A stretch of DNA of 64,000 nucleotides from Escherichia coli (GTDB lineage Bacteria; Pseudomonadota; Gammaproteobacteria; Enterobacterales; Enterobacteriaceae). Shown piece by piece: positions 3,004 to 43,920 of the stretch; positions within the stretch are counted from its first letter, which is position 1, and every line of letters starts with the position of its first letter. The stretch lies in the NCBI RefSeq assembly GCF_024223415.1, contig NZ_CP100502.1; one strand, written 5' to 3'. The notes under the pieces were generated by a model. That model worked only from the letters and a program-made list of their open reading frames with translations. It ran no database searches and was not told where the DNA came from. Position numbers and translations under genes: made by a program.

Positions 3004-5965
3004 GTTTTCCGGGCATCCGTAAGGGCCGAAACTTCCCGTCTTCCAGTCTGCGGCTCTGCCGCCAGACGTAATCGCCGGTTAGGTTGATGTGCTCCCAGCC
3101 CAGCGGCGACAGGAATTGCAGCAGCTCGCCGTCCACCGGCTTGCCGGCCTCGACCAACCCCTGGGTGGCGCGTTCCAGGTACACCGTGTTCCACAGCACG
3201 ATAGCCGCCGTCACCAGGTTGAGGCCGCTGGCCCGGTAGCGCTGCTGCTCGAAGCTCCGATCCCTGATTTCCCCAAGGCGGTTGAAGAACACCGCCCTGG
3301 CCAGCGAGTTGCGCGCCTCACCTTTGTTCAGGCCGGCATGCACGCGGCGGCGCAGTTCAACACTTTGCAGCCAGTCCAGGATGAACAGCGTGCGCTCGAT
3401 CCGGCCCAGCTCGCGCAGGGCCACGGCCAGTCCGTTCTGGCGCGGGTAGCTGCCGAGCTTGCGCAGCATCAGCGAGGCGGTGACGGTGCCCTGCTTGATC
3501 GAGCTGGCCAGGCGCAGGATGTCGTCCCAGTGGGCACGCACGTGCTTGATGTTCAGGGTGCCGCCGATCAGCGGGCGCAACGTCGGGTAGGCTTGCACGC
3601 CCTGCGGCACGTACAGCTTGGTTTCGCCGAGGTCGCGGATGCGCGGCGCGAAGCGGAAGCCTAGCAGGTGCATCAGGGCAAAGACGTGATCGGTGAAGCC
3701 GGCCGTGTCGGTGTAGTGCTCCTCGATCCGCAGGTCGGACTCGTGGTACAGCAGGCCGTCGAGCACATAGGTGGAATCGCGGACGCCGACATTCACCACG
3801 CGGGTGCTGAACGGCGCGTACTGGTCGGAGATATGGGTATAGAACAGCCGTCCCGGCTCGCTACCGTACTTCGGGTTGACGTGCCCGGTGCTCTCGCCCC
3901 GGCCACCCGCGCGGAAGCGCTGGCCATCGGAGGATGAGGTCGTGCCGTCGCCCCAGTGGGCGGCAAAGGCGTGGCGATACTGGTGGTTGACCAGCTCGGC
4001 CAAGGCCGCCGAATAGGTTTCGTCGCGGATGTGCCAGGCTTGCAGCCAGGACAGCTTGGCGTAGGTCAGGCCGGGGCTCGACTCGGCCATCTTGGTCAGC
4101 CCGAGGTTGATCGCATCACCGAGGATTGCGGACAGCAGCAACGTCCTGTCTTTGGCCTCGGCCCCGTCCTTCAAGTGGGTGAAGTGGCGGCTGAAGCCCG
4201 TCCAGTCGTCCACGTCCATCAGCAGTTCGGTGATCTTGATGCGCGGCAGTAACTGGCTGGTTTGGTCGATCAGCGCCTGCGCCCGATCCGGCACCGCCGC
4301 ATCCAGCGGGGTGATTTTCAGCCCTGACTCGGTGAGGATGGCATCGGGCAGCTCGTTGTCCTTGGCCAGGCGGGTGACGGTGGCCAACTGCTCGTCCAGC
4401 AGCTGCAAACGCTCTTCCAGGTACTGGTCGCTGTTCGGGTTGATCGCCAGGGGCAGGGCCTGCTCGCGCTTGAGTGCGGCGAACTTCTCGGCCGGCAGCA
4501 GGTAGTCGTCGAAGTCGCGGAACTGCCGCGAGCCCTTGACCCAGATGTCGCCGGAGCGCAGGGCGTTCTTCAGCTCGGACAGGGCGCAGATTTCGTAGAA
4601 TTTCCGGTCGAGGCCTTCCGGGGTGATCACCAGCGGCTTCCAGCGCGGCTTGATGAAGGCCGTGGGTGCATCGGCCGGCACCTTGCGCAGGTTGTCGGCG
4701 TTCATCTCACGCAGGGTCTGCACGGCTGCCAGCACGCCTTGCGCGGCCGGCGCGGCGCGCAGTTCCAGCACCTCCAGCAAGGCCGGCGTGTAACGGCGCA
4801 GGGTGGCGAAGTTCTCGCCGACCAGGTGCAGGTGGTCGAAGCCTTCCGGCCGGGCCAGCAGCTCGGCCTCGCTGACGCTCTCGGTGAACTCGTCCCAGGG
4901 AATCACCGCCTCGATGGCGGCATAGGGGTCGCTGCCGCTTTCCTTCGCTTCCAGCAGCGCCTGGCCGATCCTGGAGTACAGGCGCACCTTGTCGTTGATC
5001 GCCTTGCCCTGCTTCTGGAACTGCTGCTGATGCTTGTGCTTCGCGCCGCTGAACAGCTTGACCAGGATGCGGTCATGCAGATCGACCAGCTCATCGATCA
5101 CGGTCGCGGTGCTCTCCAGCACCACGGCGGCCAGGGTCGCGTAGCGGCGCTGCGGCTCGAACTTACCGAGGTCTTTGGGCGTCATCTGCCCACCCTCGCG
5201 GGCCAGCTTGAGCAGGCGGTTCTGGTGGATGTGCCGGCCCAGGCCTTCGGGCAAGTCCACCAACTGAAATGTCTTCAGCCGCTCGATGTGTTCCAGCATG
5301 TGCCGAGAGTTGGGTTTCAGCGGTGCCTGGCGCAGCCAGGTCAACCAGGTGATGCTGCTGCCGGCCTTGAGCTTCAACAGCTCGTCCAGCTTGGCCCGAT
5401 GCGAGTCCGTGAGTGGTTCGACCAGGGCGCGGTAGACCCGCCGATTGGCTCGCGCAATGGCTTCCGAGCAGGCCCGGTCAATCACGCTCAGCGCCGGCAG
5501 GATGCGTCGTTTCTGCCGTAGGCTCTCCAGGGCCTGACCGGCCAGCAGCAAGCCTTTGTCGGTCTGCTGGGCCAGCTCGGTTAGCTCGCGCACCAGGGCG
5601 CGGAAGTCGGACAGGCCGAACGGGGCCAGTTGCAGGTAGGTGCGCAGTTCCTGGGCATGCTCGCGACGGGTCACGTCGCGCTCGCCGTACTTTGCCCAGC
5701 TCGCCGGCTCGGCCTGGACTTGCTTCGCCACCCACAGGATGACCGGCTCGGGCAGCTCGCTGTCGGTTCCCAGCGCGTAACCGGGGTAGCGCAGCAGGCA
5801 GAGCTGCACGGCGAAGCCGAGGCGGTTGGCGTCGCCGCGTCGCTGGCGGATCAGCGACAGGTCGGAGTCGTTGAAGGTGTAGTAGCGGATCAGGTCATCC
5901 TGGCTTTCCGGCAGCGCAAGCAGGGTGTCCCGCTCCGTGGCCGAGAGGATCAAGCGACGCGGCAT
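2999..5965 (-). CDS. tnpA: Tn3-family transposase, Tn21 subgroup
   Basis: 988-aa ORF, recognised as Tn21/Tn1721-type TnpA by recall; immediately upstream of tnpR and res. Confidence 0.9.
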
Positions 5966-5968
5966 GTG

Positions 5969-6529
5969 TCAGTCGTCCGTGCGGAGGTACTGGTAGAGGG
6001 TTTCCCGGCTGATGTTGAACTCGCGGGCAAGCTGCGCCTTGGGCTCGCCGGCCGTCGCTCGCTGCCGCAGGGTAGCAGCCTGCTCATCGGACAGGGCTTT
6101 CTTGCGGCCCCGGTACGCGCCACGCTGCTTGGCCAAGGCGATGCCCTCACGCTGCCGCTCGCGGATCAGGGCGCGCTCGAACTCAGCGAAGGCCCCCATC
6201 ACCGACAGCATCAGGTTGGCCATCGGCGAGTCCTCGCCAGTGAACACCAGGCCCTCCTTCAGGAACTCGATGCGCACGCCGCGCTGAGTCAGCTTCTGTA
6301 CCAAGCGACGCAGGTCATCGAGGTTGCGGGCCAGCCGATCCATGCTGTGCACCACCACTGTATCGCCTTCGCGGACGAAGCTCAGCAGCGCTTCGAGCTG
6401 GGGGCGCTGGGTGTCCTTGCCCGATGCCTTGTCGGTGAACACCTTGCTCACCTGGGTTTGTTCCAGCTGGCGTTCCGGGTTCTGGTCAAAGCTGCTGACC
6501 CGGACGTAGCCGATGCGGTGCCCCTGCAC
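5969..6529 (-). CDS. tnpR: Serine resolvase of Tn21-subgroup transposon
   Basis: 186-aa ORF beginning MQGHRIGYVRVSS with catalytic serine motif and C-terminal HTH. Confidence 0.9.
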   Translation of the reverse strand: MQGHRIGYVRVSSFDQNPERQLEQTQVSKVFTDKASGKDTQRPQLEALLSFVREGDTVVVHSMDRLARNLDDLRRLVQKLTQRGVRIEFLKEGLVFTGEDSPMANLMLSVMGAFAEFERALIRERQREGIALAKQRGAYRGRKKALSDEQAATLRQRATAGEPKAQLAREFNISRETLYQYLRTDD

Positions 6530-6704
6530 GATGTCTCCTTGGTTGAAGGCGGCTTAAGTGCACTTTCTGTTCCGTTGTGCCTCAAAGCCCATTTCTGTCA
6601 GGCTGAAATCTATAACCTTCGCGGGCATGTGTCAAAAAATGGGAAAGCAGACTCTATTCTGACGAAGCGGCGCGGCCCTGCCTGACATCAAGTTAGGGTA
6701 TGCC
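6530..6704. promoter_or_regulatory. res (resolution) site region of the Tn21-like transposon
   Basis: Position between tnpR start and tnpM, as in Tn21; subsites not mapped. Confidence 0.5.
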
Positions 6705-7055
6705 TCAACCTGACGGCGGCGAATCACAAGCGTCCGGTTTGACGCTGGTTTCGGTCGCAGTGCTGGCCCGCGCCTGGAAGCGCTGATAGCACTCCAGCCC
6801 GCAGAAATGCTCCACGTACTCGGCCCCTTCCGGCGTGAAGGCGGCATCGAGCGGGATTTCCTTGCAGCACACGCAGCAACTGGTGCTCGGTTCATTGGCG
6901 TTCATGGTGGTGTTCCTCCATTGGTTGACGAAGCCGACGAAGGCCGCCGCCGGCATCGGCCTGGCGAACAGGAAACCCTGCACCGTGTCGCAACCCGCCT
7001 GCCGCAACCACGCAAGGCAGTCGGGTGTTTCCACACCCTCGGCTACCACCTCCAT
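6705..7055 (-). CDS. tnpM: TnpM (urf2M) of Tn21, start codon abutting integron IRi
   Basis: 116-aa C-terminal part of listed ORF beginning [21 protein letters not shown]; start lies directly against IRi at 7056. Confidence 0.6.
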
Positions 7056-7080
7056 TGTCGTTTTCAGAAGACGGCTGCAC
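7056..7080. repeat. IRi, 25-bp inverted repeat marking the intI1 end of a class 1 integron
   Basis: TGTCGTTTTCAGAAGACGGCTGCAC. Confidence 0.8.
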
Positions 7081-7257
7081 TGAACGTCAGAAGCCGACTG
7101 CACTATAGCAGCGGAGGGGTTGGATCCATCAGGCAACGACGGGCTGCTGCCGGCCATCAGCGGACGCAGGGAGGACTTTCCGCAACCGGCCGTTCGATGC
7201 GGCACCGATGGCCTTCGCGCAGGGGTAGTGAATCCGCCAGGATTGACTTGCGCTGCC

Positions 7258-8271
7258 CTACCTCTCACTAGTGAGGGGCGGCAGCGCATCAAGCGGTGAG
7301 CGCACTCCGGCACCGCCAACTTTCAGCACATGCGTGTAAATCATCGTCGTAGAGACGTCGGAATGGCCGAGCAGATCCTGCACGGTTCGAATGTCGTAAC
7401 CGCTGCGGAGCAAGGCCGTCGCGAACGAGTGGCGGAGGGTGTGCGGTGTGGCGGGCTTCGTGATGCCTGCTTGTTCTACGGCACGTTTGAAGGCGCGCTG
7501 AAAGGTCTGGTCATACATGTGATGGCGACGCACGACACCGCTCCGTGGATCGGTCGAATGCGTGTGCTGCGCAAAAACCCAGAACCACGGCCAGGAATGC
7601 CCGGCGCGCGGATACTTCCGCTCAAGGGCGTCGGGAAGCGCAACGCCGCTGCGGCCCTCGGCCTGGTCCTTCAGCCACCATGCCCGTGCACGCGACAGCT
7701 GCTCGCGCAGGCTGGGTGCCAAGCTCTCGGGTAACATCAAGGCCCGATCCTTGGAGCCCTTGCCCTCCCGCACGATGATCGTGCCGTGATCGAAATCCAG
7801 ATCCTTGACCCGCAGTTGCAAACCCTCACTGATCCGCATGCCCGTTCCATACAGAAGCTGGGCGAACAAACGATGCTCGCCTTCCAGAAAACCGAGGATG
7901 CGAACCACTTCATCCGGGGTCAGCACCACCGGCAAGCGCCGCGACGGCCGAGGTCTTCCGATCTCCTGAAGCCAGGGCAGATCCGTGCACAGCACCTTGC
8001 CGTAGAAGAACAGCAAGGCCGCCAATGCCTGACGATGCGTGGAGACCGAAACCTTGCGCTCGTTCGCCAGCCAGGACAGAAATGCCTCGACTTCGCTGCT
8101 GCCCAAGGTTGCCGGGTGACGCACACCGTGGAAACGGATGAAGGCACGAACCCAGTGGACATAAGCCTGTTCGGTTCGTAAGCTGTAATGCAAGTAGCGT
8201 ATGCGCTCACGCAACTGGTCCAGAACCTTGACCGAACGCAGCGGTGGTAACGGCGCAGTGGCGGTTTTCAT
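7258..8271 (-). CDS. intI1: Class 1 integron integrase
   Basis: 337-aa ORF beginning [49 protein letters not shown]. Confidence 0.95.
8156..8184 (+). promoter_or_regulatory. Integron cassette promoter Pc, weak variant (-35 TGGACA, 17-bp spacer, -10 TAAGCT); P2 inactive (14-bp spacer between TTGTTA and TACAGT)
   Basis: Hexamers read directly inside the intI1 coding region; no GGG insertion between TTGTTA and TACAGT near 8290. Confidence 0.7.
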
Positions 8272-10487: not shown

Positions 10488-11208
<721 letters not shown>

Positions 11209-14200
11209 ATGCCCGTTGACTTTCTGACCACTGAGCAGACTGAAAGCTATGGCAGATTCACCGGTGAACCGGATGAGCTTCAGCTGGCACGATATTTTCA
11301 CCTTGATGAAGCAGACAAGGAATTTATCGGAAAAAGCAGAGGTGATCACAACCGTCTGGGCATTGCCCTGCAAATTGGATGTGTCCGTTTTCTGGGCACC
11401 TTCCTCACCGATATGAATCATATTCCTTCCGGCGTCCGGCATTTTACCGCCAGACAGCTCGGGATTCGTGATATCACCGTTCTTGCAGAATACGGTCAGA
11501 GGGAAAATACCCGCCGTGAGCATGCAGCGCTGATACGTCAGCACTATCAGTATCGTGAATTTGCCTGGCCCTGGACATTTCGCCTTACCCGTCTTTTATA
11601 TACCCGGAGCTGGATAAGCAACGAACGTCCTGGCCTGCTTTTCGATCTGGCGACAGGGTGGCTTATGCAACATCGTATTATTCTCCCCGGAGCCACTACG
11701 CTGACCCGGTTGATTTCAGAGGTAAGGGAAAAGGCGACGTTGCGCCTGTGGAACAAACTGGCACTGATACCGTCAGCCGAACAGCGTTCACAGCTGGAGA
11801 TGCTGCTGGGGCCAACTGATTGCAGCCGCCTGTCTTTACTGGAATCACTGAAAAAGGGCCCTGTGACCATCAGTGGTCCGGCGTTTAATGAAGCAATTGA
11901 ACGCTGGAAAACTCTGAACGATTTTGGCCTGCATGCTGAAAACCTGAGTACACTCCCGGCTGTGCGCCTGAAAAATCTCGCACGTTATGCTGGTATGACT
12001 TCGGTGTTCAATATTGCCAGGATGTCACCGCAGAAAAGGATGGCGGTTCTGGTTGCCTTTGTCCTTGCATGGGAAACGCTGGCGCTGGATGATGCATTGG
12101 ACGTTCTGGACGCCATGCTGGCCGTTATCATCCGTGACGCCAGAAAGATTGGGCAGAAAAAACGGCTCCGCTCGCTGAAGGATCTGGATAAATCTGCATT
12201 GGCGCTCGCCAGCGCATGTTCGTACCTGCTGAAAGAAGAAACACCGGACGAATCGATTCGTGCTGAGGTGTTCAGCTACATCCCAAGGCAAAAGCTGGCT
12301 GAAATCATCACGCTTGTCCGTGAAATTGCCCGGCCCTCAGACGATAATTTTCATGAAGAAATGGTGGAGCAGTACGGGCGCGTTCGTCGTTTCCTGCCCC
12401 ATCTGCTGAATACCGTTAAATTTTCATCCGCACCTGCCGGGGTTACCACTCTGAATGCCTGTGACTACCTCAGCCGGGAGTTCAGCTCACGGCGGCAGTT
12501 TTTTGACGACGCACCAACGGAAATTATCAGTCGGTCATGGAAACGGCTGGTGATTAACAAGGAAAAACATATCACCCGCAGGGGATACACGCTCTGCTTT
12601 CTCAGTAAACTGCAGGATAGTCTGAGGCGGAGGGATGTCTACGTTACCGGCAGTAACCGGTGGGGAGATCCTCGTGCAAGATTACTACAGGGTGCTGACT
12701 GGCAGGCAAACCGGATTAAGGTTTATCGTTCTTTGGGGCACCCGACAGACCCGCAGGAAGCAATAAAATCTCTGGGTCATCAGCTTGATAGTCGTTACAG
12801 ACAGGTTGCTGCACGTCTTTGCGAAAATGAGGCTGTCGAACTCGATGTTTCTGGCCCGAAGCCCCGGTTGACAATTTCTCCCCTCGCCAGTCTTGATGAG
12901 CCGGACAGTCTGAAACGACTGAGCAAAATGATCAGTGATCTACTCCCTCCGGTGGATTTAACGGAGTTGCTGCTCGAAATTAACGCCCATACCGGATTTG
13001 CTGATGAGTTTTTCCATGCTAGTGAAGCCAGTGCCAGAGTTGATGATCTGCCCGTCAGCATCAGCGCCGTGCTGATGGCTGAAGCCTGCAATATCGGTCT
13101 GGAACCACTGATCAGATCAAATGTTCCTGCACTGACCCGACACCGGCTGAACTGGACAAAAGCGAACTATCTGCGGGCTGAAACTATCACCAGCGCTAAT
13201 GCCAGACTGGTTGATTTTCAGGCAACGCTGCCACTGGCACAGATATGGGGTGGAGGAGAAGTGGCATCTGCAGATGGAATGCGCTTTGTTACGCCAGTCA
13301 GAACAATCAATGCCGGACCGAACCGCAAATACTTTGGTAATAACAGAGGGATCACCTGGTACAACTTTGTGTCCGATCAGTATTCCGGCTTTCATGGCAT
13401 CGTTATACCGGGGACGCTGAGGGACTCTATCTTTGTGCTGGAAGGTCTTCTGGAACAGGAGACCGGGCTGAATCCAACCGAAATTATGACCGATACAGCA
13501 GGTGCCAGCGAACTTGTCTTTGGCCTTTTCTGGCTGCTGGGATACCAGTTTTCTCCACGCCTGGCTGATGCCGGTGCTTCGGTTTTCTGGCGAATGGACC
13601 ATGATGCCGACTATGGCGTGCTGAATGATATTGCCAGAGGGCAATCAGATCCCCGAAAAATAGTCCTTCAGTGGGACGAAATGATCCGGACCGCTGGCTC
13701 CCTGAAGCTGGGCAAAGTACAGGTTTCAGTGCTGGTCCGTTCATTGCTGAAAAGTGAACGTCCTTCCGGACTGACTCAGGCAATCATTGAAGTGGGGCGC
13801 ATCAACAAAACGCTGTATCTGCTTAATTATATTGATGATGAAGATTACCGCCGGCGCATTCTGACCCAGCTTAATCGGGGAGAAAGTCGCCATGCCGTTG
13901 CCAGAGCCATCTGTCACGGTCAAAAAGGTGAGATAAGAAAACGATATACCGACGGTCAGGAAGATCAACTGGGCACACTGGGGCTGGTCACTAACGCCGT
14001 CGTGTTATGGAACACTATTTATATGCAGGCAGCCCTGGATCATCTCCGGGCGCAGGGTGAAACACTGAATGATGAAGATATCGCACGCCTCTCCCCGCTT
14101 TGCCACGGACATATCAATATGCTCGGCCATTATTCCTTCACGCTGGCAGAACTGGTGACCAAAGGACATCTGAGACCATTAAAAGAGGCGTCAGAGGCAG

Positions 14201-16275: not shown

Positions 16276-16507
16276 TATAGGAAGAATAAACGCCCTTTTC
16301 ACCCAAGTCCAACAGCTTTGGACCGCAGTTGACTCTTTCGACACCCCTGCGATGCAACCCAATCCGGCTGACGGGGAGCCAGCAACGCTGAAAATTTACC
16401 CTCCTCTTTCCCACTAGCGGCTCCTTTTCCGACAACCAGCACGGCGGATCCCTGCCGCGGCGCTGTGAACGCAGCATTTTGATTGGTATCGTTGGCCTTC
16501 AGGCTCG

Positions 16508-17644
16508 TCAGTCAAACAGACCCAGGAGCAGCTCAGCCGGTGGCGCCCGGCTTTCGGGTAACGCCCTGGTCCCGCTGGTTTCGGCTTTGTGCTTCAGGTG
16601 ATCAAGGATCTGCTTGATCACTATAGGGTCTTCAATGCAGGCGATGACTTTCATGGCGCCGCCGCAGCCGCTGCAGGTCTCGATGTCGATATTGAAAACA
16701 CGCTTGAGCCGTTGCGCCCATGTCATCGACGCTCGCCGTTGTGCTGGTGTTGCCGGTTCATCAGCCACCCTGACCTTGTTGCCCCTGCCCCGTTTTGCCG
16801 GCGTGACCAACGCCCGGTGCCGACTGTTGGGTGCGAACACCCCGTGGAAGCGGGTTAGGTTGACTCTGGGCTTCGGTACCAGGGCGGCCAGCCTTGCAAT
16901 GAAATCCAATGGTTCGAAAATGACGTGCGTGGTGCCGTCCCGGTACGGCGTCTTGAGCTGGTAGCGCACGTTGCCGCCTCGTGTTAACGACAGCCGCTTC
17001 TCGGATACCGCCGGGCGGCTGATGTACCGGCACAGCCGTTCGAGCTTCTTGCGTTCATCGGCCCTGGCCGCCACGCCGGCGTGCAGGCTGGACCCGGCTA
17101 CCTTGCCAATCCCGTCACCGAACGGATCACCACTGGTCGGCAGAGTTTGCAAAGTGAACACCTTTCGCCCCGCCTGTGAACCGACAGCGATACGGTAAGT
17201 GATCGAGTGCCCCAGCAGGGGTGTCATCGGGTCGTCATCCACCGCATCCGAGGCCAGATAGCTGTTTTCGACATCCCGTTCCAGCAGGCCTTGCCGTTCC
17301 AGATAGCGACCCACCCGGTGGGCGATGGTGTGCGTCAGCTGGGTGAGCTCTGGGGTGGTCGGCGCCTTGACCCAGCGGAAACGCGCTGAGCCGTGGGATT
17401 GCTCGACATACACACCGTCGAGAAACAGCATGTGGAAGTGAACATTCAGATTGAGCGCCGATCCAAAACGCTGGATCAGGGTGACCGCGCCCGTCTTGGC
17501 CACTTGGTGGGTATGGCCCGCTTTCTTGACCAGGTGCGTGGCAATGACGCGGTAAACGATGCCCAGCACCCACCCCATGATCTCGGGCCGGCTGGCAAAC
17601 AGGAAACGCAGCTGAAACGGGAAGCTCAACACCCACTGACGCAT
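16508..17644 (-). CDS. IS91-family ISCR2-like transposase, probably lacking the N-terminal zinc-binding region
   Basis: 378-aa ORF with HFH (HUH) and YxxxY motifs and ISCR-type C-terminus IDIETCSGCGGAMKVIACIEDPIVIKQILDHL; adjacent to sul2 and truncated glmM. Confidence 0.7.
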   Translation of the reverse strand: MRQWVLSFPFQLRFLFASRPEIMGWVLGIVYRVIATHLVKKAGHTHQVAKTGAVTLIQRFGSALNLNVHFHMLFLDGVYVEQSHGSARFRWVKAPTTPELTQLTHTIAHRVGRYLERQGLLERDVENSYLASDAVDDDPMTPLLGHSITYRIAVGSQAGRKVFTLQTLPTSGDPFGDGIGKVAGSSLHAGVAARADERKKLERLCRYISRPAVSEKRLSLTRGGNVRYQLKTPYRDGTTHVIFEPLDFIARLAALVPKPRVNLTRFHGVFAPNSRHRALVTPAKRGRGNKVRVADEPATPAQRRASMTWAQRLKRVFNIDIETCSGCGGAMKVIACIEDPIVIKQILDHLKHKAETSGTRALPESRAPPAELLLGLFD

Positions 17645-23631: not shown

Positions 23632-23807
23632 GATATTTTGTGGCTCAGTTCTGTAACTTTTCCCGTAACATTGTCTGTTGTTACGGGAAAGTCCGGTTTT
23701 TGTATTGCACCAGAGAATACCCAGACTGTGATGCTGCCACAGTGTCAGCAGGCTTTCTGAACGGTATAACACCACTTCATGTTAATGATAATTACTATCA
23801 TTAAATC

Positions 23808-23909: not shown

Positions 23910-25790
23910 ATGTCTGACCCTGTACGTATTACAAATCCCGGTGCAGAATCGCTGGGATATGATTCAGATGGCCATGAAATTATGGCCGTTGATATTTATG
24001 TAAACCCTCCACGTGTCGATGTCTTTCATGGTACCCCGCCTGCATGGAGTTCCTTCGGGAACAAAACCATCTGGGGTGGAAACGAGTGGGTCGATGATTC
24101 CCCAACCCGAAGTGATATCGAAAAAAGGGACAAGGAAATCACAGCGTACAAAAACACGCTCAGCGCGCAGCAGAAAGAGAATGAGAATAAGCGTACTGAA
24201 GCTGGAAAACGCCTTTCTGCGGCAATTGCTGCAAGGGAAAAAGATGAAAACACACTGAAAACACTCCGTGCCGGAAACGCAGATGCCGCTGATATTACAC
24301 GACAGGAGTTCAGACTCCTGCAGGCAGAGCTGAGAGAATACGGATTCCGTACTGAAATCGCCGGATATGATGCCCTCCGGCTGCATACAGAGAGCCGGAT
24401 GCTGTTTGCTGATGCTGATTCTCTTCGTATATCTCCCCGCGAGGCCAGGTCGTTAATCGAACAGGCTGAAAAACGGCAGAAGGATGCGCAGAACGCAGAC
24501 AAGAAGGCCGCTGATATGCTTGCTGAATACGAGCGCAGAAAAGGTATTCTGGACACGCGGTTGTCAGAGCTGGAAAAAAATGGCGGGGCAGCCCTTGCCG
24601 TTCTTGATGCACAACAGGCCCGTCTGCTCGGGCAGCAGACACGGAATGACAGGGCCATTTCAGAGGCCCGGAATAAACTCAGTTCGGTGACGGAATCGCT
24701 TAAGACGGCCCGTAATGCATTAACCAGAGCTGAACAACAGCTGACGCAACAGAAAAACACGCCTGACGGCAAAACGATAGTTTCCCCTGAAAAATTCCCG
24801 GGGCGTTCATCAACAAATCATTCTATTGTTGTGAGTGGTGATCCGAGGTTTGCCGGTACGATAAAAATCACAACCAGCGCGGTCATCGATAACCGTGCAA
24901 ACCTGAATTATCTTCTGACCCATTCCGGTCTGGACTATAAACGCAATATTCTGAATGACCGGAATCCGGTGGTGACAGAGGATGTGGAAGGTGACAAGAA
25001 AATTTATAATGCTGAAGTTGCTGAATGGGATAAGTTACGGCAACGATTGCTTGATGCCAGAAATAAAATCACCTCTGCTGAATCTGCGATAAATTCGGCG
25101 AGAAATAACGTCAGTGCCAGAACAAATGAACAAAAGCATGCAAATGACGCTCTTAATGCCCTGTTGAAGGAAAAAGAGAATATCCGTAGCCAGCTTGCTG
25201 ACATCAATCAGAAAATAGCTGAAGAGAAAAGAAAAAGGGATGAAATAAATATGGTAAAGGATGCCATAAAACTCACCTCTGATTTCTACAGAACGATATA
25301 TGATGAGTTCGGTAAACAAGCATCCGAACTTGCTAAGGAGCTGGCTTCTGTATCTCAAGGGAAACAGATTAAGAGTGTGGATGATGCACTGAACGCTTTT
25401 GATAAATTCCGTAATAATCTGAACAAGAAATATAACATACAAGATCGCATGGCCATTTCTAAAGCCCTGGAAGCTATTAATCAGGTCCATATGGCGGAGA
25501 ATTTTAAGCTGTTCAGTAAGGCATTTGGTTTTACCGGAAAAGTTATTGATCGTTATGATGTTGCTGTGGAGTTACAAAAGGCTGTAAAAACGGACAACTG
25601 GCGTCCATTTTTTGTAAAACTTGAATCACTGGCAGCAGGAAGAGCTGCTTCAGCAGTTACAGCATGGGCGTTTTCCGTCATGCTGGGAACCCCTGTAGGT
25701 ATTCTGGGTTTTGCAATTATTATGGCGGCTGTGAGTGCGCTTGTTAATGATAAGTTTATTGAGCAGGTCAATAAACTTATTGGTATCTGA
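23910..25790 (+). CDS. cib: Pore-forming colicin of the Ia/Ib group (immunity partner favours Ib)
   Basis: 626-aa ORF MSDPVRITNPGAESLGYDSDGHEIMAVDIYVNPPRVDVFHG...; hydrophobic channel domain at C-terminus. Confidence 0.9.
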   Translation: MSDPVRITNPGAESLGYDSDGHEIMAVDIYVNPPRVDVFHGTPPAWSSFGNKTIWGGNEWVDDSPTRSDIEKRDKEITAYKNTLSAQQKENENKRTEAGKRLSAAIAAREKDENTLKTLRAGNADAADITRQEFRLLQAELREYGFRTEIAGYDALRLHTESRMLFADADSLRISPREARSLIEQAEKRQKDAQNADKKAADMLAEYERRKGILDTRLSELEKNGGAALAVLDAQQARLLGQQTRNDRAISEARNKLSSVTESLKTARNALTRAEQQLTQQKNTPDGKTIVSPEKFPGRSSTNHSIVVSGDPRFAGTIKITTSAVIDNRANLNYLLTHSGLDYKRNILNDRNPVVTEDVEGDKKIYNAEVAEWDKLRQRLLDARNKITSAESAINSARNNVSARTNEQKHANDALNALLKEKENIRSQLADINQKIAEEKRKRDEINMVKDAIKLTSDFYRTIYDEFGKQASELAKELASVSQGKQIKSVDDALNAFDKFRNNLNKKYNIQDRMAISKALEAINQVHMAENFKLFSKAFGFTGKVIDRYDVAVELQKAVKTDNWRPFFVKLESLAAGRAASAVTAWAFSVMLGTPVGILGFAIIMAAVSALVNDKFIEQVNKLIGI

Positions 25791-25807
25791 CACATAATGA
25801 TGCCCTT

Positions 25808-26155
25808 TCATTTTCCTGAAAGGGCTTTGCAGAGTATAAAAATTAAGTAAATGGCAACCACAGGAACTGATATAACGAAACAGAATAATTCAAATATTGC
25901 AGTTAAGCTTCCGCCAACTGGATTTGTAAAGAAGTCTTTTTGCCAGAATTCTTTCCCTGTAAACCTTATTACCATTTTCTGTATTATCCTCATTGAAAAA
26001 GGAAAAGTAATGGCACTGATAATGCATCCGATGAACGCATAAAACATTCTTGCATTTTCCTGGTTATCTTTCCATCCCAGATAAAAAACTGTAAGAATAA
26101 TGAGGATTGGTATCAGGCTTTTCAGTAAATACTTTACAGATATATCCAGTTTCAT
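25808..26155 (-). CDS. imm: Colicin Ib-type immunity protein (inner membrane)
   Basis: 115-aa hydrophobic ORF convergent with the colicin gene. Confidence 0.8.
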   Translation of the reverse strand: MKLDISVKYLLKSLIPILIILTVFYLGWKDNQENARMFYAFIGCIISAITFPFSMRIIQKMVIRFTGKEFWQKDFFTNPVGGSLTAIFELFCFVISVPVVAIYLIFILCKALSGK

Positions 26156-26273
26156 CTGGTTTCTCCTTTATTGTTATCGTGTACCGGTGCGTGATAACAT
26201 AATCACAGCATGATAATAATAATCAATAACAATAAGCTGTGTCACGTTTACATCATGGAACGGAGGTGCTCCT

Positions 26274-26594
26274 GTGACCTTTGAGCAGAAAAAAGCTCGG
26301 GCCATTGCCCTGATGGACAGCAAAAAGATGTGGCGGAGCAATTATGCCCCTCCTCTTCTGCGTATTCTCTGGCGGCTGGGTATCCGGCTTCCGCCATTAC
26401 CCTTTATGCCGTTCTGGCAGGTCACGGTGCTGACGGGGGGCTTATGGGGCATTTCCTGGGGATGTGCAATGTGGTTTATCTACTGGGGGCCGTCAGGAAT
26501 GGTGGCAGGTGAGGCCATTATTATAAGTATCACGGGGGGGGGTTTTGTCCGGACTGTGCATGGCCTCTTTCCACTGGTGGCGCAGGAAAGTTAA
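26274..26594 (+). CDS. Small predicted membrane protein
   Basis: 106-aa ORF with two Trp-rich hydrophobic segments. Confidence 0.45.
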   Translation: MTFEQKKARAIALMDSKKMWRSNYAPPLLRILWRLGIRLPPLPFMPFWQVTVLTGGLWGISWGCAMWFIYWGPSGMVAGEAIIISITGGGFVRTVHGLFPLVAQES

Positions 26595-26641
26595 CCGGCT
26601 GCCACCATGGGATGATGTGTAAACCGTGCACAGGCGTGTTC

Positions 26642-27232
26642 TTACGGAGCGGCACTTTCATTTATCTGTACGCGAACCTCCATTCCTGCATCGTGACAGG
26701 CCTGCAGCCACTGCGCCACTTCCAGCGGATCGCCCTCCCGGCGTACCACCCTGCCTTCTTTATTCCATAACTGCAGACAGGTGCTGCCGTCTAGACGCAC
26801 CACAAAATCCCCACGGCAGGCCTGATACGTTATGCCGTTCAGTTGCACCGCCAGATCAGTGGCAGAAGTGCCATCTGCGGGCAGACCTGCTGCCGGGACC
26901 AGCGGCAGTACGACGACTTCTGCCGCACGCTGTTCTGCCCGGAGGCGGTCCTGTTCTGCCAGCAGCAGAGGCTGTGCCACGGCCCGGCCGGCGTCCGTCA
27001 GCTCTACTGCCAGCTGCAGGTTCGGAGCGCGCAGGGTACGCAGCCAGCCGGCATCCTCCAGACGACGGCAGGAGGCGCGCAGGTTTGGCCCGTAGACCGG
27101 GGCTTCCCCGCTTCGCTCCAGCACCCGTTCTATGTCCCGCGTCAGCACGGGTCCTGGCCGTTTTTCATCAAGGGCAGCCAGCACAATCAGCACTCTCCGC
27201 TGCAGTGGCGACGGTCGGCGGCTCTGGGTCAT
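26642..27232 (-). CDS. Hypothetical protein with winged-helix-like N-terminus; markedly GC-rich gene
   Basis: 196-aa ORF; noticeably more GC-rich than flanking DNA; start overlaps stop of upstream ORF. Confidence 0.55.
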   Translation of the reverse strand: MTQSRRPSPLQRRVLIVLAALDEKRPGPVLTRDIERVLERSGEAPVYGPNLRASCRRLEDAGWLRTLRAPNLQLAVELTDAGRAVAQPLLLAEQDRLRAEQRAAEVVVLPLVPAAGLPADGTSATDLAVQLNGITYQACRGDFVVRLDGSTCLQLWNKEGRVVRREGDPLEVAQWLQACHDAGMEVRVQINESAAP

Positions 27233-27489
27233 TACCTGTCATCCTCCGGCCAGATGAGGTTTCTGAGGCGCTGAAAGTCGGCGTCAATGAGCTCCTGTCT
27301 CTTTATGGCATTCATTGAGGCATAGCCATTTATGGCCAGTTCATGCCAGAAGATCAGCACGGCTCCGGCTTTGGCTGACTCGCAGAGATAAATCGCGCCC
27401 TGGCTGTCCAGATTGCATTCCCGGATGCGTCGTTCCGCAAACCGGGTCAGTTGTTCATAGCTGAGTGAAAACGTCATTTCCTGATCCAT
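27232..27489 (-). CDS. Hypothetical small protein, first gene of a two-gene operon
   Basis: 85-aa ORF translationally coupled to the downstream gene. Confidence 0.5.
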   Translation of the reverse strand: MDQEMTFSLSYEQLTRFAERRIRECNLDSQGAIYLCESAKAGAVLIFWHELAINGYASMNAIKRQELIDADFQRLRNLIWPEDDR

Positions 27490-27839
27490 CCTGCACGCTC
27501 CATCTGATAATATTCTGACAGGTAATAATCATATCCTGAATGATTTGTGTGCTCCTGATTTCTGATAATATCAGATATGGTTTTATCATCAATGATGAAA
27601 ATCATATCTGATATGATTTTATGTGTATTTTTTATTATCATATCATTTGCGTCTTTTCTGCCGCGCAGATCCGGTTTCCGGCGGTTCCGGAGATTTAAAT
27701 TCCATCGGTACTGACAGGGCGTTAAACACAGGTATTATCGAACGGTTCTGTTTTCTAATGCTAAGCTTCAAACCAGCTGCCCATGCCGTCAATACAGATG
27801 CACCGATGCGCTTGCGTGGCTTTTCAGGGAGATAAAGTT

Positions 27840-28841
27840 ATGGCCGATCCATTCAATCTGCAGACCGATGTGGTCAGGCAGCATACGGTTCCCCGTTTTT
27901 TACTGAAGCATTTCAGTACGCCGGGAAAGGGTAAGCGGCAGCGCTTATACGCCTTTGACAAGGCTGCCGGGCGCGCCTATGCCACCACGCCGGATGACGC
28001 GACCGTCCGCAACACGTTCTACAACCTCGATAATCACCCGGACCGTCTGAGTCTTGAACCACTGCTGGGGATTTACGAGCACCACGCGGCACCGGTAATT
28101 GCAGCCCTGCTGGCGCACAGGGATATTCGCAGGCTGACAGATGATGAACGCTACAGGCTGGCCGTGTTTGTTGCCGTGCAGCGCGCACGAACCTTCGGTG
28201 AACTGGAGCGTATCTCAGGCATGATTTCGGTGCTTACCGATAAGATGGAGGCCATCGGCTCGACTAAAGAGCAGGCCATGGAAACCCTGGGCCTGTCGTC
28301 CGGGGGCGATACCAAGGATATTTTTCTGCGGCAGCTCGTCCAGCAGGTGTCACATATTGATCTCCTGCTGAAAAAGGACTGGTACCTTCTGGAAACCAGG
28401 CCAGAACGTCCGTTTTACGTATCAGACAATCCCGTAGTGCTTAAGAACAGCAATGACTTCGGTCCGTACGGTAATCTTGGTCTGGCCGTTCGCGGGATAC
28501 AGATTTACCTCCCCCTGTCATCGACGCTGATGCTGGCCATGTATTGCCCCTCCATCCGTGAACAGATGGTTCGTCAAAAGCAGCATCTTCAACATCTGCT
28601 CGCCAGGGCGCCGCATCTTATCCCCCGTCACATTCGGCCTTTTGAAAGACTGGAACATATCCGGAGGTATACGGACTATCTTCTTATGCCGCTTACCCCG
28701 GAGCATGTCACGCATTACAATTCCCTGCAGGTGGAGTTCGCGGAGCAGTACGTGTTCTGCGGTGAAAAGGATTTCTCTCTGGTTGAGAGAATGCTGGCCG
28801 ATAGTGAACGCTACCGGACTGGCCCGCGGTTTACGTTTTAG
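27840..28841 (+). CDS. DUF4238-family protein, candidate single-gene anti-phage defence
   Basis: N-terminal HTVPRFLLKHF matching the DUF4238 signature; 333 aa from MADPFNLQT with SD GGGAG. Confidence 0.65.
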   Translation: MADPFNLQTDVVRQHTVPRFLLKHFSTPGKGKRQRLYAFDKAAGRAYATTPDDATVRNTFYNLDNHPDRLSLEPLLGIYEHHAAPVIAALLAHRDIRRLTDDERYRLAVFVAVQRARTFGELERISGMISVLTDKMEAIGSTKEQAMETLGLSSGGDTKDIFLRQLVQQVSHIDLLLKKDWYLLETRPERPFYVSDNPVVLKNSNDFGPYGNLGLAVRGIQIYLPLSSTLMLAMYCPSIREQMVRQKQHLQHLLARAPHLIPRHIRPFERLEHIRRYTDYLLMPLTPEHVTHYNSLQVEFAEQYVFCGEKDFSLVERMLADSERYRTGPRFTF

Positions 28842-29016
28842 TCCGAATTCCGGCCTCACCTGTGCCGGAAAATGACGGCGGGAGCCCCTGTTGTACAGAG
28901 GAGTTTTGCCGTGTTGCACCCACGCGAAAGCGGCAGTGGTCACAGGGACCACCGCCGTAAGGAGATGGTGAGTATCTGTTGACATTCACCATCAGTTCGT
29001 GTAGCGTTGCGGCTAC

Positions 29017-29361
29017 TTACTTTAGCAGAGTAAATCTTCGGCAAGTGGCGGTAACCACTTTACCGATACCCCAGAGTAGTCCGCGCTTTACTGGCGTGAC
29101 CCATAGTGCCGAAACCGCAAATTTCGACACTATAAAGGCCTTCAGCCAGGGCACTACAAACCAGACCACCGCAGCACAGAGACCCACATAGGCCATAAGA
29201 AGCAAAATACAGAGACAGGCGCTCCAGTATTGCTTCTGGCAAATATGGTCCCTGGTTCCGATAACCAGGCGTTTAACGGTGGAGAAAATCGTCCAAATAA
29301 AATGGATTTCAGTCTGGAATGGGAATAGAACCGTTCCCTCGGTGTCTAACAAGTTTTTCAT
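29017..29361 (-). CDS. Predicted small membrane protein
   Basis: 114-aa ORF with SD GGGAGG 7 nt upstream; two hydrophobic helices. Confidence 0.4.
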   Translation of the reverse strand: MKNLLDTEGTVLFPFQTEIHFIWTIFSTVKRLVIGTRDHICQKQYWSACLCILLLMAYVGLCAAVVWFVVPWLKAFIVSKFAVSALWVTPVKRGLLWGIGKVVTATCRRFTLLK

Positions 29362-29859
29362 AGAACCCTCCCGGGTAAGTATTTACAAAAGTAACTGTCT
29401 TGATTTTGGTCATCTCAATAACCTCGTTTTTAAGTCAAAAGGCACCCGGCGCCTCACACACGTGAACGCTGTTAATGCCGTACAGAATGTTTTATCTTTC
29501 AGCTCTGTTATGATGTGTTCATTCGCATCCTCCTGTTTGTCATACCGATTTTAAGCTCGTTCCGGGGGCTCCCCGGAAAAAAATCCAAAAAAATCCGGGC
29601 CGGAATGGTGATAACCAGTCTGGCGGGAAATAAACGGATCTTGTTGGGGTGGAGCGGGACGGAACAATACTATGAGAGTAATGTTAACAGAAATCACCGC
29701 CTTTGTCAAGGCGCACTTATCCATTAAAGCAACTATAGCATAGTAATACTGATGTCAATTTAGCAAAAAGTGCTATCCGTCGTTCTGCTGTATGTCTATT
29801 TTCCTTCACCTCCGGGCAACCTGGCGAATACATTTTTACTTTTTTTGCCCCCTGCCCCC

Positions 29860-30114
29860 TCAGAGTACCGAGACGAAGAGATGTGTGGCCACGCCCTGCC
29901 GGCGTCCGGTAAACGGCCCCTGCGCCGTACCCGCTGACAGCCGGCATTTTCGCCCGGAACGGGTGAAGGCTGACTTGAGCGATTTGGAGGCCTCCCGCAG
30001 CGCATCCTCAAGACCGGTGTTCAGACAGAGCCTCACCACCGCCCCTGAAGGGAGACGGGCAATCTCCGCGAAACTCTCTCCGCCGGTAACATAGCGGCTC
30101 TGTCGTCCTTTCAT
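29860..30114 (-). CDS. Small GC-rich ORF downstream of the 308-aa gene
   Basis: 84-aa ORF with SD AGGAGG. Confidence 0.35.
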   Translation of the reverse strand: MKGRQSRYVTGGESFAEIARLPSGAVVRLCLNTGLEDALREASKSLKSAFTRSGRKCRLSAGTAQGPFTGRRQGVATHLFVSVL

Positions 30115-30158
30115 TGTATCCTCCTGATGATGCAGTTGTGCCCGCAGATCCGGGTCCG

Positions 30159-31085
30159 TTACAGCAGGTTTTCTTCCACCACGTTGATCAGCGCCTGAGC
30201 GACATCCCCGAGCGGGGTGGGATTGTGATCTTCTTCCACACCGTTGGTGTAAAGGTGAAGCTCACACACCCCGTCCACAAAACGGAAGGCCTTGTCCCAC
30301 CTGTCGGGTTCGGCGCTGATCAGGGCGCTGTAGCCCGGATCGGCGGTAAAGAGGCGGTATTCAAGCTCCGGGAACGGGATGTTCCACATCTGGGTGGCGT
30401 AATTTTCCGGGAGGCTCAGTGTAACGCGCCATGCGCCGCGGGCGTAATTTTCCGGGCGGTAGATACGCACCGTGATGCCATCCCGCGTCCAGCTGTCGCC
30501 GGTGAGGGCAGGCAGTTTTTTCAGGGCGCGGATGGCCTCGATATCTTGGTAAAAGCGGTGTTTTTTTTCCCTCAGTTGCGAGTAGAAGATATTTTTCCAG
30601 GCCTGGTCGATGGTTTCCCTGTCCCGGCCGGCGATCTCGGCAAACAGGGAGAAGGTCAGGGAGATCCCGCGCGGGATATTTTTCCACCCCTTAAGCACCT
30701 GGTCGGCACGGACCTGCAGGAAGGGGGTGTTGTTCAGTACCAACCGGCGGAGCTCCTCTTCCGTCGAGATCCCCAGCAGCTTCTGGTATTCCTGATTCCA
30801 GCGGGTGATAAAATGGCTCTGGTAGCGCTGCTCCATGACCTTAGCGTCCAGATAACTGGCCAGCTCCTCATCCAGGGAGGCGATGAGCGGGTTCTTCAGG
30901 GCAAAGCTGTCGATGACGTCGCGGAAGCTGTCTTCCAGGAACTCACGCAGAAACGTCGCCTTTGGCTTACGGGCGTGGCTTGCCAGGTCGGTGATCACCC
31001 GGTCGGTGTCAGCGGGGATGTTCCGCAGGGTATACGTTACGCTCTCTCCACCGTCGTTTGTCATGTCATGTTCTTTTTCACTCAT
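30159..31085 (-). CDS. Hypothetical protein with ribbon-helix-helix-like N-terminus and uncharacterised C-terminal domain
   Basis: 308-aa ORF; N-terminal VTYTLRNIPADTDRVITDLASHARKPKATFLREFL. Confidence 0.55.
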   Translation of the reverse strand: MSEKEHDMTNDGGESVTYTLRNIPADTDRVITDLASHARKPKATFLREFLEDSFRDVIDSFALKNPLIASLDEELASYLDAKVMEQRYQSHFITRWNQEYQKLLGISTEEELRRLVLNNTPFLQVRADQVLKGWKNIPRGISLTFSLFAEIAGRDRETIDQAWKNIFYSQLREKKHRFYQDIEAIRALKKLPALTGDSWTRDGITVRIYRPENYARGAWRVTLSLPENYATQMWNIPFPELEYRLFTADPGYSALISAEPDRWDKAFRFVDGVCELHLYTNGVEEDHNPTPLGDVAQALINVVEENLL

Positions 31086-31616
31086 CCCGCGTACCTTTTC
31101 ATGTGAGGGGGCATTGCTGCAATACTTATACTCTATCCTGGTTTTGAGTGTCTTTAAATACTGCGAAGCATACGTTTTTATAATTCGTATGCTTCGCTGT
31201 CTGTTTTCTGTTCACTTCCTTTTCTGAGATCCGAAAACCCCAGGTCACGGATCTTCCTCTCCCCCCACACAACGCCACCTCCTGTAAGCACAATATGTAG
31301 TGCTGCATTCAGCTGCTGATGACACTATATGTTGTGTTATTTCCCTTGCCTGTGATGCGCCGTGCAGGGGCGGAAAACAGCGATATGATTATTTCCTCAT
31401 CGTGGTACACTTCCGGAAAGTTGTGATATTCCGGAAAGTCGGATCTGACGGAAACGGCTCTCCGGTAATTTAACTGCGTGGTTATATGGATGCTTGTTAT
31501 CATGGTGATGATGATAACGGCATGATGTTATCAGACGGCGTGACGGTAAGGGCAGTGATGATGGATGACGTTATCGCATGACCGTCCCTGCCCGGAAAAG
31601 AAAAAAGGAGTCACCC

Positions 31617-32030
31617 ATGTTTTTTATTGAGAATGAAGGTCAGGCTGTCGCCAGAACGGATTACTGGCAGTCTGTACAGGCGCAGGCCGGATATGTCTAC
31701 CTCAGCTGGAATGCCGGCGCAGCCAGGCTGCTTGTCCCGGATGCGGCAAAACATTTACTCAGGGAGATGCGGGGAGCTGAGTACGTCATCATCAGTAAGG
31801 GAACGCTCCATGGCCGCGATGCGCTGGAACTGGTATTTGAAGACGGCAGCGATGCGCCGTTCGTGATCCACATGCTGAGTGAGCAGTGCGATCGCCTGCT
31901 CCCCGAAAACAACCAGGGAGGGGGTTTTGTTGTCACCGTCTGGACGCGTGGCGGTAACCAGCTCCGTTATCCGGGAAAATACCGGGTTGTGGAAAACCTG
32001 CCCGACGTTTCCCCGTGGAGTGAACACTGA
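31617..32030 (+). CDS. Hypothetical protein co-transcribed with tyrosine recombinase
   Basis: 137 aa from MFFIENEGQ with SD AAGGAG; stop overlaps recombinase start. Confidence 0.5.
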   Translation: MFFIENEGQAVARTDYWQSVQAQAGYVYLSWNAGAARLLVPDAAKHLLREMRGAEYVIISKGTLHGRDALELVFEDGSDAPFVIHMLSEQCDRLLPENNQGGGFVVTVWTRGGNQLRYPGKYRVVENLPDVSPWSEH

Positions 32031-42980: not shown

Positions 42981-43168
42981 ATATCAGCACAGAAACCCGC
43001 GAAATTCTGCGTAATTACAGGGCCGTGATTAATGCGCGGCGTCGTGAAATGGGGCAGAAACCGCTCACCACCGCGCAGATTGTTGATGAAATCTGCGATT
43101 TTGTGGCGAATCAGCAGGCGGTTTTCCTGGGCGGTCACTACATCTTACAGGGCAGCAGAAACAGGTGA
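42977..43168 (+). CDS. Hypothetical small protein
   Basis: 63-aa ORF overlapping upstream stop. Confidence 0.4.
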   Translation: MNISTETREILRNYRAVINARRREMGQKPLTTAQIVDEICDFVANQQAVFLGGHYILQGSRNR

Positions 43169-43404
43169 TACAGGGGCAGGCGGTGGAGGCCGCCTGTCAG
43201 CCCGCGCGAAAACCCCTGGCAGGCTGACGCCTGCCGGAAGGGAAGCGGGCCACGCTGGCGCGTCGCCCGTTACCCTTCCCGTCTGTGATGTGTCTGACTC
43301 AGGAGTGTTTCTTTCTTATGTTATGGAACTGTTCCTGATGTTGTTGTTCCTTTATCTGCTGCTCTGATTCTGACTACTGCAGTGTTGTTCTGTCTGCCGG
43401 GCGC

Positions 43405-43920
43405 ACCTTCGGCTCCCGGCTGCCTGGCGGCATCCGGTCGTCAGGCCCGACTCCGACAGGCAGCTGCTGGCGCACCCGCCAGTCTCCGCCGAACCCGCTG
43501 GCGCGGTTTCGGGCTGTCGCTACGGTCCGATGCGTGAAAACCCGGGCTTGCAGCGACCGTTCCGGTCGCGCCGCCTCTGTCGCGCCGTGACCTGCGCTCC
43601 CTGCACACCTGACGGTGTGTGAGGAAACTGCGCCTGATGGCGCAGCAGTCCTCCCTCCTGCCGCCACCTCTGCGGCCTGTTTCCCGCTGTGGACTTTCCG
43701 GGGGGCAGACGTAACCCCCTCCCGTTCCATCTGTCCAGGGTGAGATGCACCGGCCACAAAATTTTTAGCCATGAACCCGGCAAAAAATTTTGCGTCCGCC
43801 CCCGGACAGCTGTCCCGTGAGGCGGTAAACGGGCCCCCATCGGAAAGGTCCACTGCGGGGAGAAACCCCTGTGAAGTGGACGGCAGGAGGAGCTTTCGCT
43901 CCTCTGAAGGGGCACATGAA
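43405..43920. repeat. Leading-region GC-rich repeat, family A copy 1 (Frpo/ssi-like)
   Basis: About 515 bp highly similar to 49739-50255 and, in part, 52815-53150; directly upstream of ssb. Confidence 0.7.

Follow-up and report, generated by a model that had tools for sequence, protein, structure and literature searches.

The 64,000-nt stretch of Escherichia coli contig NZ_CP100502.1 (assembly GCF_024223415.1) analyzed here, referred to below as the window, belongs to the backbone of a "Col-type" IncI1 plasmid and carries the two-gene operon ydfA-ydeA. The local gene order is yagA, cib, imm, a DUF6404 open reading frame (ORF), ydeA, ydfA, a 350-bp intergenic region and DUF4238; to the right of DUF4238, further ORFs are followed by a tyrosine recombinase gene and parA (Table 1). 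The DUF6404 gene is convergent with ydeA, and no co-oriented gene directly follows ydeA in the window. The 2.7 kb around the operon are 100% identical to many IncI1 plasmids, the ColIb-P9 copy corresponding to NC_002122 nt 11026-13225, and both products, WP_000194553 (YdeA) and WP_000371888 (YdfA), have 100% matches in many IncI1 plasmids. The names ydeA and ydfA are already in use (PMC3438092, PMC12111858).

Gene structure and products of the ydfA-ydeA operon

The stop codon of ydfA and the start codon of ydeA share the sequence TAATG, and the ydeA ribosome-binding site, GGAGGA, is situated 9 nt before the ydeA start, within the 3′ end of ydfA. This confirms the translational coupling of the 196- and 85-amino-acid (aa) ORFs claimed in a preliminary description of the locus. 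In other plasmids the overlap takes a 1-nt or 4-nt form. Both genes evolve under purifying selection, with ratios of nonsynonymous to synonymous substitution (dN/dS) of 0.06-0.39 for ydeA and, at deeper divergences, 0.33-0.43 for ydfA. For a close homologue in pUA1135, reverse transcription PCR shows that ydfA, ydeA and ibfA are co-transcribed, and in R64-type plasmids these three genes share one transcript with a FinO-family gene (PMC12111858); ydfA-ydeA transcripts were also detected in pS88 (PMC3438092). The in silico analysis supports ydfA-ydeA as a real, translationally coupled two-gene operon. In the IncK2/Z plasmid pSH287-2 (locus L020, 5001-5845, compared with window 26642-27489), ydeA is near-identical to the window copy (dS 0.06), whereas ydfA is strongly divergent (dS 0.77, 57% aa identity); these mosaic alleles point to a recombination breakpoint at the gene junction.

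The AlphaFold2 model of YdeA, based on a 19-sequence alignment, is confident (pLDDT 87.6) and comprises a winged helix (residues ~9-78), a long helix (80-104), a flexible linker and a β-rich C-terminal domain (127-190), for which no close structural relative was found. From this model, YdeA is predicted to be a winged-helix DNA binder. A search of PDB sequences returned no matching chain for either protein. In PHROGs, YdeA matched one unnamed family covering the winged helix-turn-helix (wHTH), and YdfA matched none; below the significance threshold, YdeA resembled the Pfam families AbiEi_4 (E = 0.057) and PaaX (E = 0.016). The YdeA family is small, with 217 representatives, many of them fragmentary, among 1.84 billion cluster representatives. 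YdfA is an acidic 85-aa protein with no detectable family.

Several length variants of YdeA were observed. A 169-aa form (P0101, P0108) carries an in-frame deletion of residues ~92-118, spanning the end of the long helix and the linker; it is very common, with one cluster found on at least 1000 contigs. Six homologues (P0241, P0243, P0245, P0248, P0250 and P0251) are 300-428 aa long and bear a conserved C-terminal extension of ~100-230 residues without a Pfam match, and P0251 (L014-L016), the one among them with its gene context examined, stands alone beside RND efflux genes. In the Klebsiella IncF copy, the strongest divergence falls in the C-terminal domain of YdeA.

The preliminary description called ydeA conspicuously richer in guanine and cytosine (GC) than its surroundings and suggested separate acquisition. 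The total GC content is indeed high, 64.0% against a window mean of 53.1%, ranking second among 40 long ORFs, but it reaches only z = 1.59 and the 94th percentile of 591-nt windows. Stretches that equal or exceed ydeA in richness (at least 62% in 591-nt windows) also occur at 2871-7600, 16500-17000, 43000-43500 and 49300-49850. At third codon positions ydeA ranks 11th of the 40 (GC3 0.645, z = 0.64), and GC3 is equal in ydeA, ydfA (0.640) and DUF4238 (0.641). The excess is concentrated in codon positions 1 and 2 (GC1 0.79) and results from the amino-acid composition of YdeA, which is rich in Leu, Ala, Arg, Val, Pro and Gly. GC-richness as a mark of foreign origin is ruled out by the GC3 shared with the partner and neighbours. 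Because GC3 is equal and the two genes travel together in ~2,000 plasmids, ydeA is not shown to be separately acquired, and this part of the earlier account falls.

Table 1. Features of the ydfA-ydeA locus and its neighbourhood (window coordinates)
Feature	Position	Strand	Details
ydeA	26642-27232	-	196-aa ORF, downstream gene of the pair
ydfA	27232-27489	-	85-aa ORF, first gene of the operon
Coupling junction	27230-27247	-	TAATG at 27230-27234 and GGAGGA at 27242-27247, read from sequence
5′ UTR repeat copy	27503-27513		TCTGATAATAT
5′ UTR imperfect palindrome	27527-27545		AATCATATCCTGAATGATT
Predicted σ70 promoter of ydfA-ydeA	27565-27592	-	-35 TTGATG 27592-27587, 16-nt spacer, TG-extended -10 TATTAT 27570-27565
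Palindrome 1	27561-27575		TCTGATA-A-TATCAGA; core CTGATAATATCAG at 27562-27574; overlaps -10 hexamer
Palindrome 2	27586-27598		TCATCA-A-TGATGA; overlaps -35 hexamer
Palindrome 3	27598-27620		AAAATCATATC-T-GATATGATTTT, 11-nt arms; abuts -35 hexamer on upstream side
Distal half-site	27637-27644		ATCATATC within ATTATCATAT
Left hybrid rfsF-like site	27667-27694		AGATCCGGTTTCCGGC/GGTTCCGGAGAT; left 16 nt (AGATCCGGTTTCCGGC) constant backbone, right half cassette-specific
Cassette, outside the operon	27683-31244		3.56 kb, missing from pCol1B9_SL1344
DUF4238 promoter-like site	27711-27738	+	consensus scan; inside cassette
DUF4238	27840-28841	+	Pfam PF14022, E = 9e-42
114-aa ORF, historical ColIb "ibfA"	29017-29361	-	345 bp; inside cassette
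84-aa ORF	29860-30114	-	inside cassette
308-aa ORF	30159-31085	-	inside cassette; no Pfam match
Right rfsF-like site	31227-31254		cassette-specific left half, constant right half GT(T/C)ACGGATCTTCC; far end of cargo
cib (colicin Ib)	23910-25790		
imm	25808-26155	-	
DUF6404 ORF	26274-26594	+	

Palindromes at the predicted ydfA promoter and their conservation

A consensus scan of the intergenic region revealed only one σ70-like site on the minus strand, which is the predicted promoter of ydfA-ydeA. The implied transcription start site (TSS), at ~27558, lies 69 nt upstream of the ydfA ATG, and the BProm TSS prediction for the pUA1135 homologue gives the same distance (PMC12111858). Palindromic sequences lie over the -10, over the -35, immediately upstream of the latter and in the 5′ untranslated region (UTR), which is the standard layout of an autorepressed promoter. 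Of the two palindromes singled out in the preliminary description, the shorter proved to be the core of palindrome 1; the longer, placed at 27599-27617, is real but was drawn one base off and too short, and corresponds to palindrome 3.

The arrangement is unlikely to be a product of base composition, as neither the 11-nt arms nor this number of palindromes was reached in any of 1000 dinucleotide shuffles of the intergenic region. The word ATCATATC is found 8 times in the 64 kb, where 1.4 copies would be expected, and four of them are packed into ~120 nt (27528-27644); for TCTGATAATAT, counted with up to one mismatch, the corresponding numbers are 5 and 0.4, three of the copies lying in this intergenic region. 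Palindrome 3 contains the sole convergent AATCATAT/ATATGATT pair in the 64 kb and is the best candidate for a YdeA operator. No further operator pairs were found elsewhere in the 64 kb, other promoters included. Single operator words are present upstream of the recombinase operon, at 31382-31389 (GATATGAT) and 31525-31535; they are probably unrelated to YdeA, since F also conserves GATATGAT although the 14-kb region of F that was examined contains no ydeA. A hairpin at 27655-27700 is not unusually stable when folded (z = -1.3).

Megablast detected the block of ydfA, ydeA and operator in 3,954 plasmids, 2,036 of which hold at least 80% of it. The carriers include IncI1, IncK and IncF plasmids and Klebsiella IncF plasmids, at 82-97% nucleotide identity (~82% for Klebsiella IncF). 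In an alignment of five divergent backbones, conservation extends through the palindromes, the conserved module ends at window positions 27682-27691, and the sequences are unrelated beyond ~27692. Palindrome 1 is identical in three of the five, palindrome 3 is kept with 0-1 mismatch in four, and ATTATCATAT is invariant in all five. Within the 260 nt that precede ydfA, the half-site (ATCATAT or AATCATA) reaches 8-15 copies per kb, compared with 0.1-0.4 per kb elsewhere in the same loci.

Inverted AATCATA/TATGATT-type pairs were also located just upstream of three distant YdeA homologues, in L018 (54% identity; AGATATGATTTT...AAAACCATATCTGATAT), L011 (47%; TATGATTTA-N13-TAAATCATA) and L019 (55%; TATGATTA-N17-TAATCATA). 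The first of these has an unrelated small partner of 88 aa, and the other two have no called ydfA-like gene upstream. The 88-aa partner was considered as a possible relative of YdfA and rejected: BLASTP returned nothing and hhalign gave a probability of 1.4%, although two short motifs do line up. Since the inverted pairs are kept where the partner differs or is absent, the motif may follow YdeA rather than YdfA, an association that is suggestive only.

The DUF4238 cassette and the 28-bp recombination-like element

The sequence beyond the palindromes has a different distribution. The plasmid pCol1B9_SL1344 aligns with the window up to 27691 and picks up again at 31244, so that a 3.56-kb indel separates the two. 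The missing cassette includes DUF4238, whose identification in the preliminary description was borne out by Pfam, together with its promoter-like site. This DUF4238 gene is carried by only 328 of the 2,036 module-bearing plasmids, and the nearest palindrome lies ~90 nt from its -35 hexamer, with no operator-like site closer. Because the shared homology ends before the DUF4238 promoter and the cassette is absent or replaced elsewhere, the palindromes belong to ydfA-ydeA; DUF4238 appears from these comparisons to be independent cargo and does not appear to be controlled by the operon.

In other plasmids the position of DUF4238 is taken by a gene for a 1069-aa protein with a RES gene, a 499-aa RES protein, a PDC-S06 ATPase (E = 5e-286), a PDC-S35/TIR-like gene with a different DUF4238, DUF3800, colicin V-associated genes, or nothing. 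Slots on both sides of ydfA-ydeA elsewhere hold known or candidate defence genes, including HEC-04/IbfA (E ~1e-41) and the unannotated 1069-aa protein (L021 6202-8340; L023 3692-5955; L003 4393-5736 and 7237-10446; L020 6113-7612; L025 6136-7257).

A 28-bp inverted-repeat element, AGATCCG-N14-CGGATCT, ends the conserved module and is always located 180 nt from the ydfA ATG. Empty sites, in pCol1B9_SL1344 and two Klebsiella plasmids, contain one complete copy of the element, whereas occupied sites contain hybrid copies at both cargo ends; this pattern fits site-specific integration of cassettes. In pF1053-1, two tandem cassettes are separated by a third copy. The sequence of the element would suit a tyrosine-recombinase core site of 11-6-11 layout, with the junction in its central part, and a gene for a 259-aa "site-specific integrase" of the tyrosine recombinase type is found a few hundred base pairs to the right of the cassette. 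Further copies were recorded in L003 (7027, 10653, 12452), L004 (7027), L020 (6024, 8633) and the F plasmid (L028, 5923). The F copy is situated between pifC and ccdA/resD, exactly where homology between F and the window starts; rfsF maps to this region of F. Judged by this position, the 28-bp element is probably the rfsF core. The switch between the Col and Delta gene sets has been located "at the rfsF site" (PMC8004404), and rfsF-ResD-mediated acquisition of DNA has been proposed (PMC9412624).

The cassette overlaps a region of historical interest. In ColIb-P9, "ibfA" is annotated at NC_002122 nt 13401-13745 (PMC8004404), and the 114-aa ORF of the window matches it in length (345 bp) and relative position; this ORF has a long hydrophobic stretch and no PGAP call. 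The abi/ibf products of ColIb that act against T5 and BF23 are reported as never identified (PMC10644984). Because the whole cassette is absent from pCol1B9_SL1344, the DUF4238 gene and the 114-, 84- and 308-aa ORFs are each possible abi determinants, and the real determinant could be any of the four.

On the other side of the operon, the DUF6404-family ORF contains a homopolymer tract at 26534-26546 that reads G9T4 in the window, G7T5 in pAZ1114, and an interrupted G/T run one base shorter in pCol1B9_SL1344. The change is a +1 frameshift by which the ORF is cut short, and identical plasmids have no gene listed at this place in PLSDB; a sequencing artefact, a pseudogene or a tract prone to slippage could each account for it. 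Fur-box-like sites with 16 of 19 consensus matches occur upstream of cib (23781-23805) and of the DUF6404 gene (26206-26230), which fits the iron responsiveness of cia and ybaA reported for pS88 (PMC3438092). An Rfam scan of 25500-32000 identified no credible RNA family.

Interpretation of the operon and alternative explanations

Considering these features together, we regard it as probable, if only by a modest measure, that the backbone of IncI-complex and IncF plasmids carries ydfA-ydeA as an autonomous operon under negative autoregulation, with DUF4238 not among its targets. Gene structure, selection, fold, motif enrichment, the conservation and position of the palindromes, and the module boundary all have in silico support; that YdeA binds the palindromes, that this binding represses the promoter, and that YdfA has any role are what we infer from them. 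Most likely, the larger protein, YdeA, would shut down its own promoter by way of the palindromes. Probably acting as a dimer, YdeA would bind AATCATA(T)-type half-sites with its N-terminal winged helix, and occupancy of the -10, the -35, the DNA just upstream and the 5′ UTR would repress ydfA-ydeA and any co-transcribed downstream genes. In R64-type plasmids the repression would extend to the defence gene ibfA and the FinO-family gene, while in the window there is nothing co-oriented directly downstream. The C-terminal β domain and the small acidic YdfA may act as modulators of binding, as a sensor or a partner. The operon would be bounded by the 28-bp rfsF-like recombination site, and DUF4238 beyond it would represent independently acquired cargo with a promoter of its own.

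Comparison with characterized systems is consistent with this reading in part. According to the model, YdeA has the winged helix-turn-helix fold of MarR, PadR and ArsR autorepressors, and the position, enrichment and conservation of the palindromes are compatible with the own-promoter palindromic operators of MarR and PadR. Unlike these regulators, YdeA has no significant Pfam or NCBIfam match to their families and is preceded by a translationally coupled small gene; the helical dimerization frame of MarR is also missing, and in its place there are a long single helix and an orphan β-rich C-terminal domain. AbiEi (Pfam AbiEi_4, PF13338) shares with YdeA an N-terminal wHTH followed by a C-terminal domain, a plasmid location near defence genes and inverted repeats at its own promoter, but the Pfam match falls short of significance (E = 0.057), loss of ydeA is tolerated in a natural plasmid, and no gene for an AbiEii/DUF1814 nucleotidyltransferase was present in ~15 contexts examined. 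BrxR and CapW are likewise wHTH regulators upstream of a phage-defence gene, in a defence-rich variable region, an arrangement matched by co-transcription in R64-type plasmids; ydfA-ydeA differs in its extra small upstream gene and in occurring also without defence cargo, and YdeA has no WYL domain by sequence or fold. The "conserved hypothetical" genes ydeA and ydfA of ColIb-P9, R64 and pS88 are the same genes, to which the respective reports assign no function, and the operator architecture, fold and module boundary were not found in the papers that we searched.

Several observations weigh against autorepression by YdeA. Neither YdeA nor YdfA has a significant match in Pfam, NCBIfam or PADLOC, so that YdeA is not placed in any curated regulator family, and the ydfA promoter and TSS are predictions from consensus sequences. 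Palindrome 2, the least conserved of the three, is kept in only two of the five backbones, the sites of the Klebsiella IncF copy are degenerate, and four of seven distant YdeA homologues have no clear inverted pair. The palindromes could be bound by YdfA or by a host protein instead. The 169-aa variant of YdeA may mean that the full-length architecture is not essential, or may be a decayed allele.

The preliminary description had proposed that the palindromes are operators shared by both divergent units, with the 196-aa protein controlling its own operon as well as DUF4238, and that the GC-rich gene was separately acquired. The two units are divergent and only 350 bp apart, and the palindromes are real, non-random, conserved and situated on the ydfA promoter, which upholds their role as operator candidates for that unit; the GC rank of ydeA speaks for the second part of the proposal. 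We nevertheless find the proposal quite improbable, because the homology common to ~2,000 plasmids ends at 27682-27691 at a recombination-site-like element. The DUF4238 gene and its promoter-like site lie in a separate cassette that is absent from pCol1B9_SL1344 and swapped for unrelated cargo elsewhere; this DUF4238 is present in only a minority of module plasmids, no operator-like site falls within ~90 nt of its -35 hexamer, and ydeA does not differ in GC3 from ydfA and DUF4238. Another binder of the AT-rich palindromes might be the host regulator Fur, whose consensus is resembled by the words GATAAT, AATCAT and AATGAT and by the site at the neighbouring colicin promoter (cib, 16/19); in pS88, ydfA mRNA fell to 0.17-fold with an iron chelator (PMC3438092). 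That change is, however, a decrease, opposite in direction to Fur de-repression, and not significant (p = 0.119; PMC3438092). A Fur box was sought in 27490-27700 and rejected: the best match to GATAATGATAATCATTATC reached 12/19, no better than composition-matched shuffles (P = 0.70), compared with 16/19 at cib; the genuine-looking 16/19 sites are outside this region, at 23781-23799 and 26212-26230. We regard Fur boxes in place of YdeA operators as highly improbable.

Two small overlapping plasmid genes with palindromes on the -10 and -35 also recall a toxin-antitoxin pair, with YdfA as toxin and YdeA as DNA-binding antitoxin in the reverse, HigBA/MqsRA-like order, or with YdeA as an AbiEi-like antitoxin of an unrecognized partner. 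The weak AbiEi_4 wHTH match (E = 0.057), the replacement of the partner in L018 in a mix-and-match manner and the defence genes nearby would suit such a pair, but neither protein belongs to a toxin or antitoxin family in Pfam, NCBIfam or PADLOC, PHROGs and PDB sequences provide no match to a toxin, no AbiEii nucleotidyltransferase accompanies the genes, and the acidic character of YdfA is unusual for a toxin. Moreover, distant YdeA homologues are solitary, the operon can be deleted from pUA1135 (PMC12111858), and each gene has been found to survive loss of the other, in single natural examples: in pEC556_1, IS91 has destroyed ydeA but left an identical ydfA with its promoter untouched, and pDC71-2 keeps ydeA without ydfA. 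We consider a toxin-antitoxin function improbable. A defence-island regulator analogous to BrxR and CapW, in which YdeA would respond to a cue from phage or stress, perceived by its C-terminal domain or by YdfA, and de-repress co-transcribed or neighbouring defence cargo, is less easily set aside, though still unlikely in our estimate. It accords with co-transcription in R64-type plasmids, where the whole operon protects slightly better (efficiency of plating 0.01) than ibfA alone (0.05; PMC12111858), with HEC-04/IbfA downstream of ydeA in four IncF/IncI plasmid loci (L003, L021, L024, L025), and with flanking slots that hold PDC-S06, PDC-S35/TIR-like, RES, DUF3800 and DUF4238 genes; yet ibfA has its own promoter and works alone (PMC12111858), some plasmids carry the module without an adjacent defence gene, and the window has neither a co-oriented gene after ydeA, where DUF6404 is convergent, nor operator copies at other promoters. 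More speculatively, YdfA-YdeA might be the resident gatekeeper of an integron-like cassette hotspot, where YdeA occupancy would couple expression of the flanking cargo or ResD-mediated cassette exchange to a signal perceived by YdfA or by the orphan C-terminal domain of YdeA and, in ColIb-P9, would have a share in the ibfA/ibfB (abi) phenotype seen with T5 and BF23. The operator array always lies 45-180 nt from the 28-bp rfsF-like site, and many cassettes are anti-phage (DUF4238, RES, PDC-S06, TIR-like); we hold this idea to be a long shot.

As a probable autorepressed module, ydfA-ydeA would be an ordinary kind of regulator operon, widespread and already named but uncharacterized, and its main interest is contextual, lying in the cargo slot next to it. 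The operon forms the fixed edge of a slot bounded by recombination sites that often contains phage-defence genes and is situated beside the mapped abi/ibf region of ColIb. The analysis offers a testable function and a candidate operator for a pair of "hypothetical" genes that thousands of plasmids of clinical relevance, of the IncI, IncF and IncK groups, carry.

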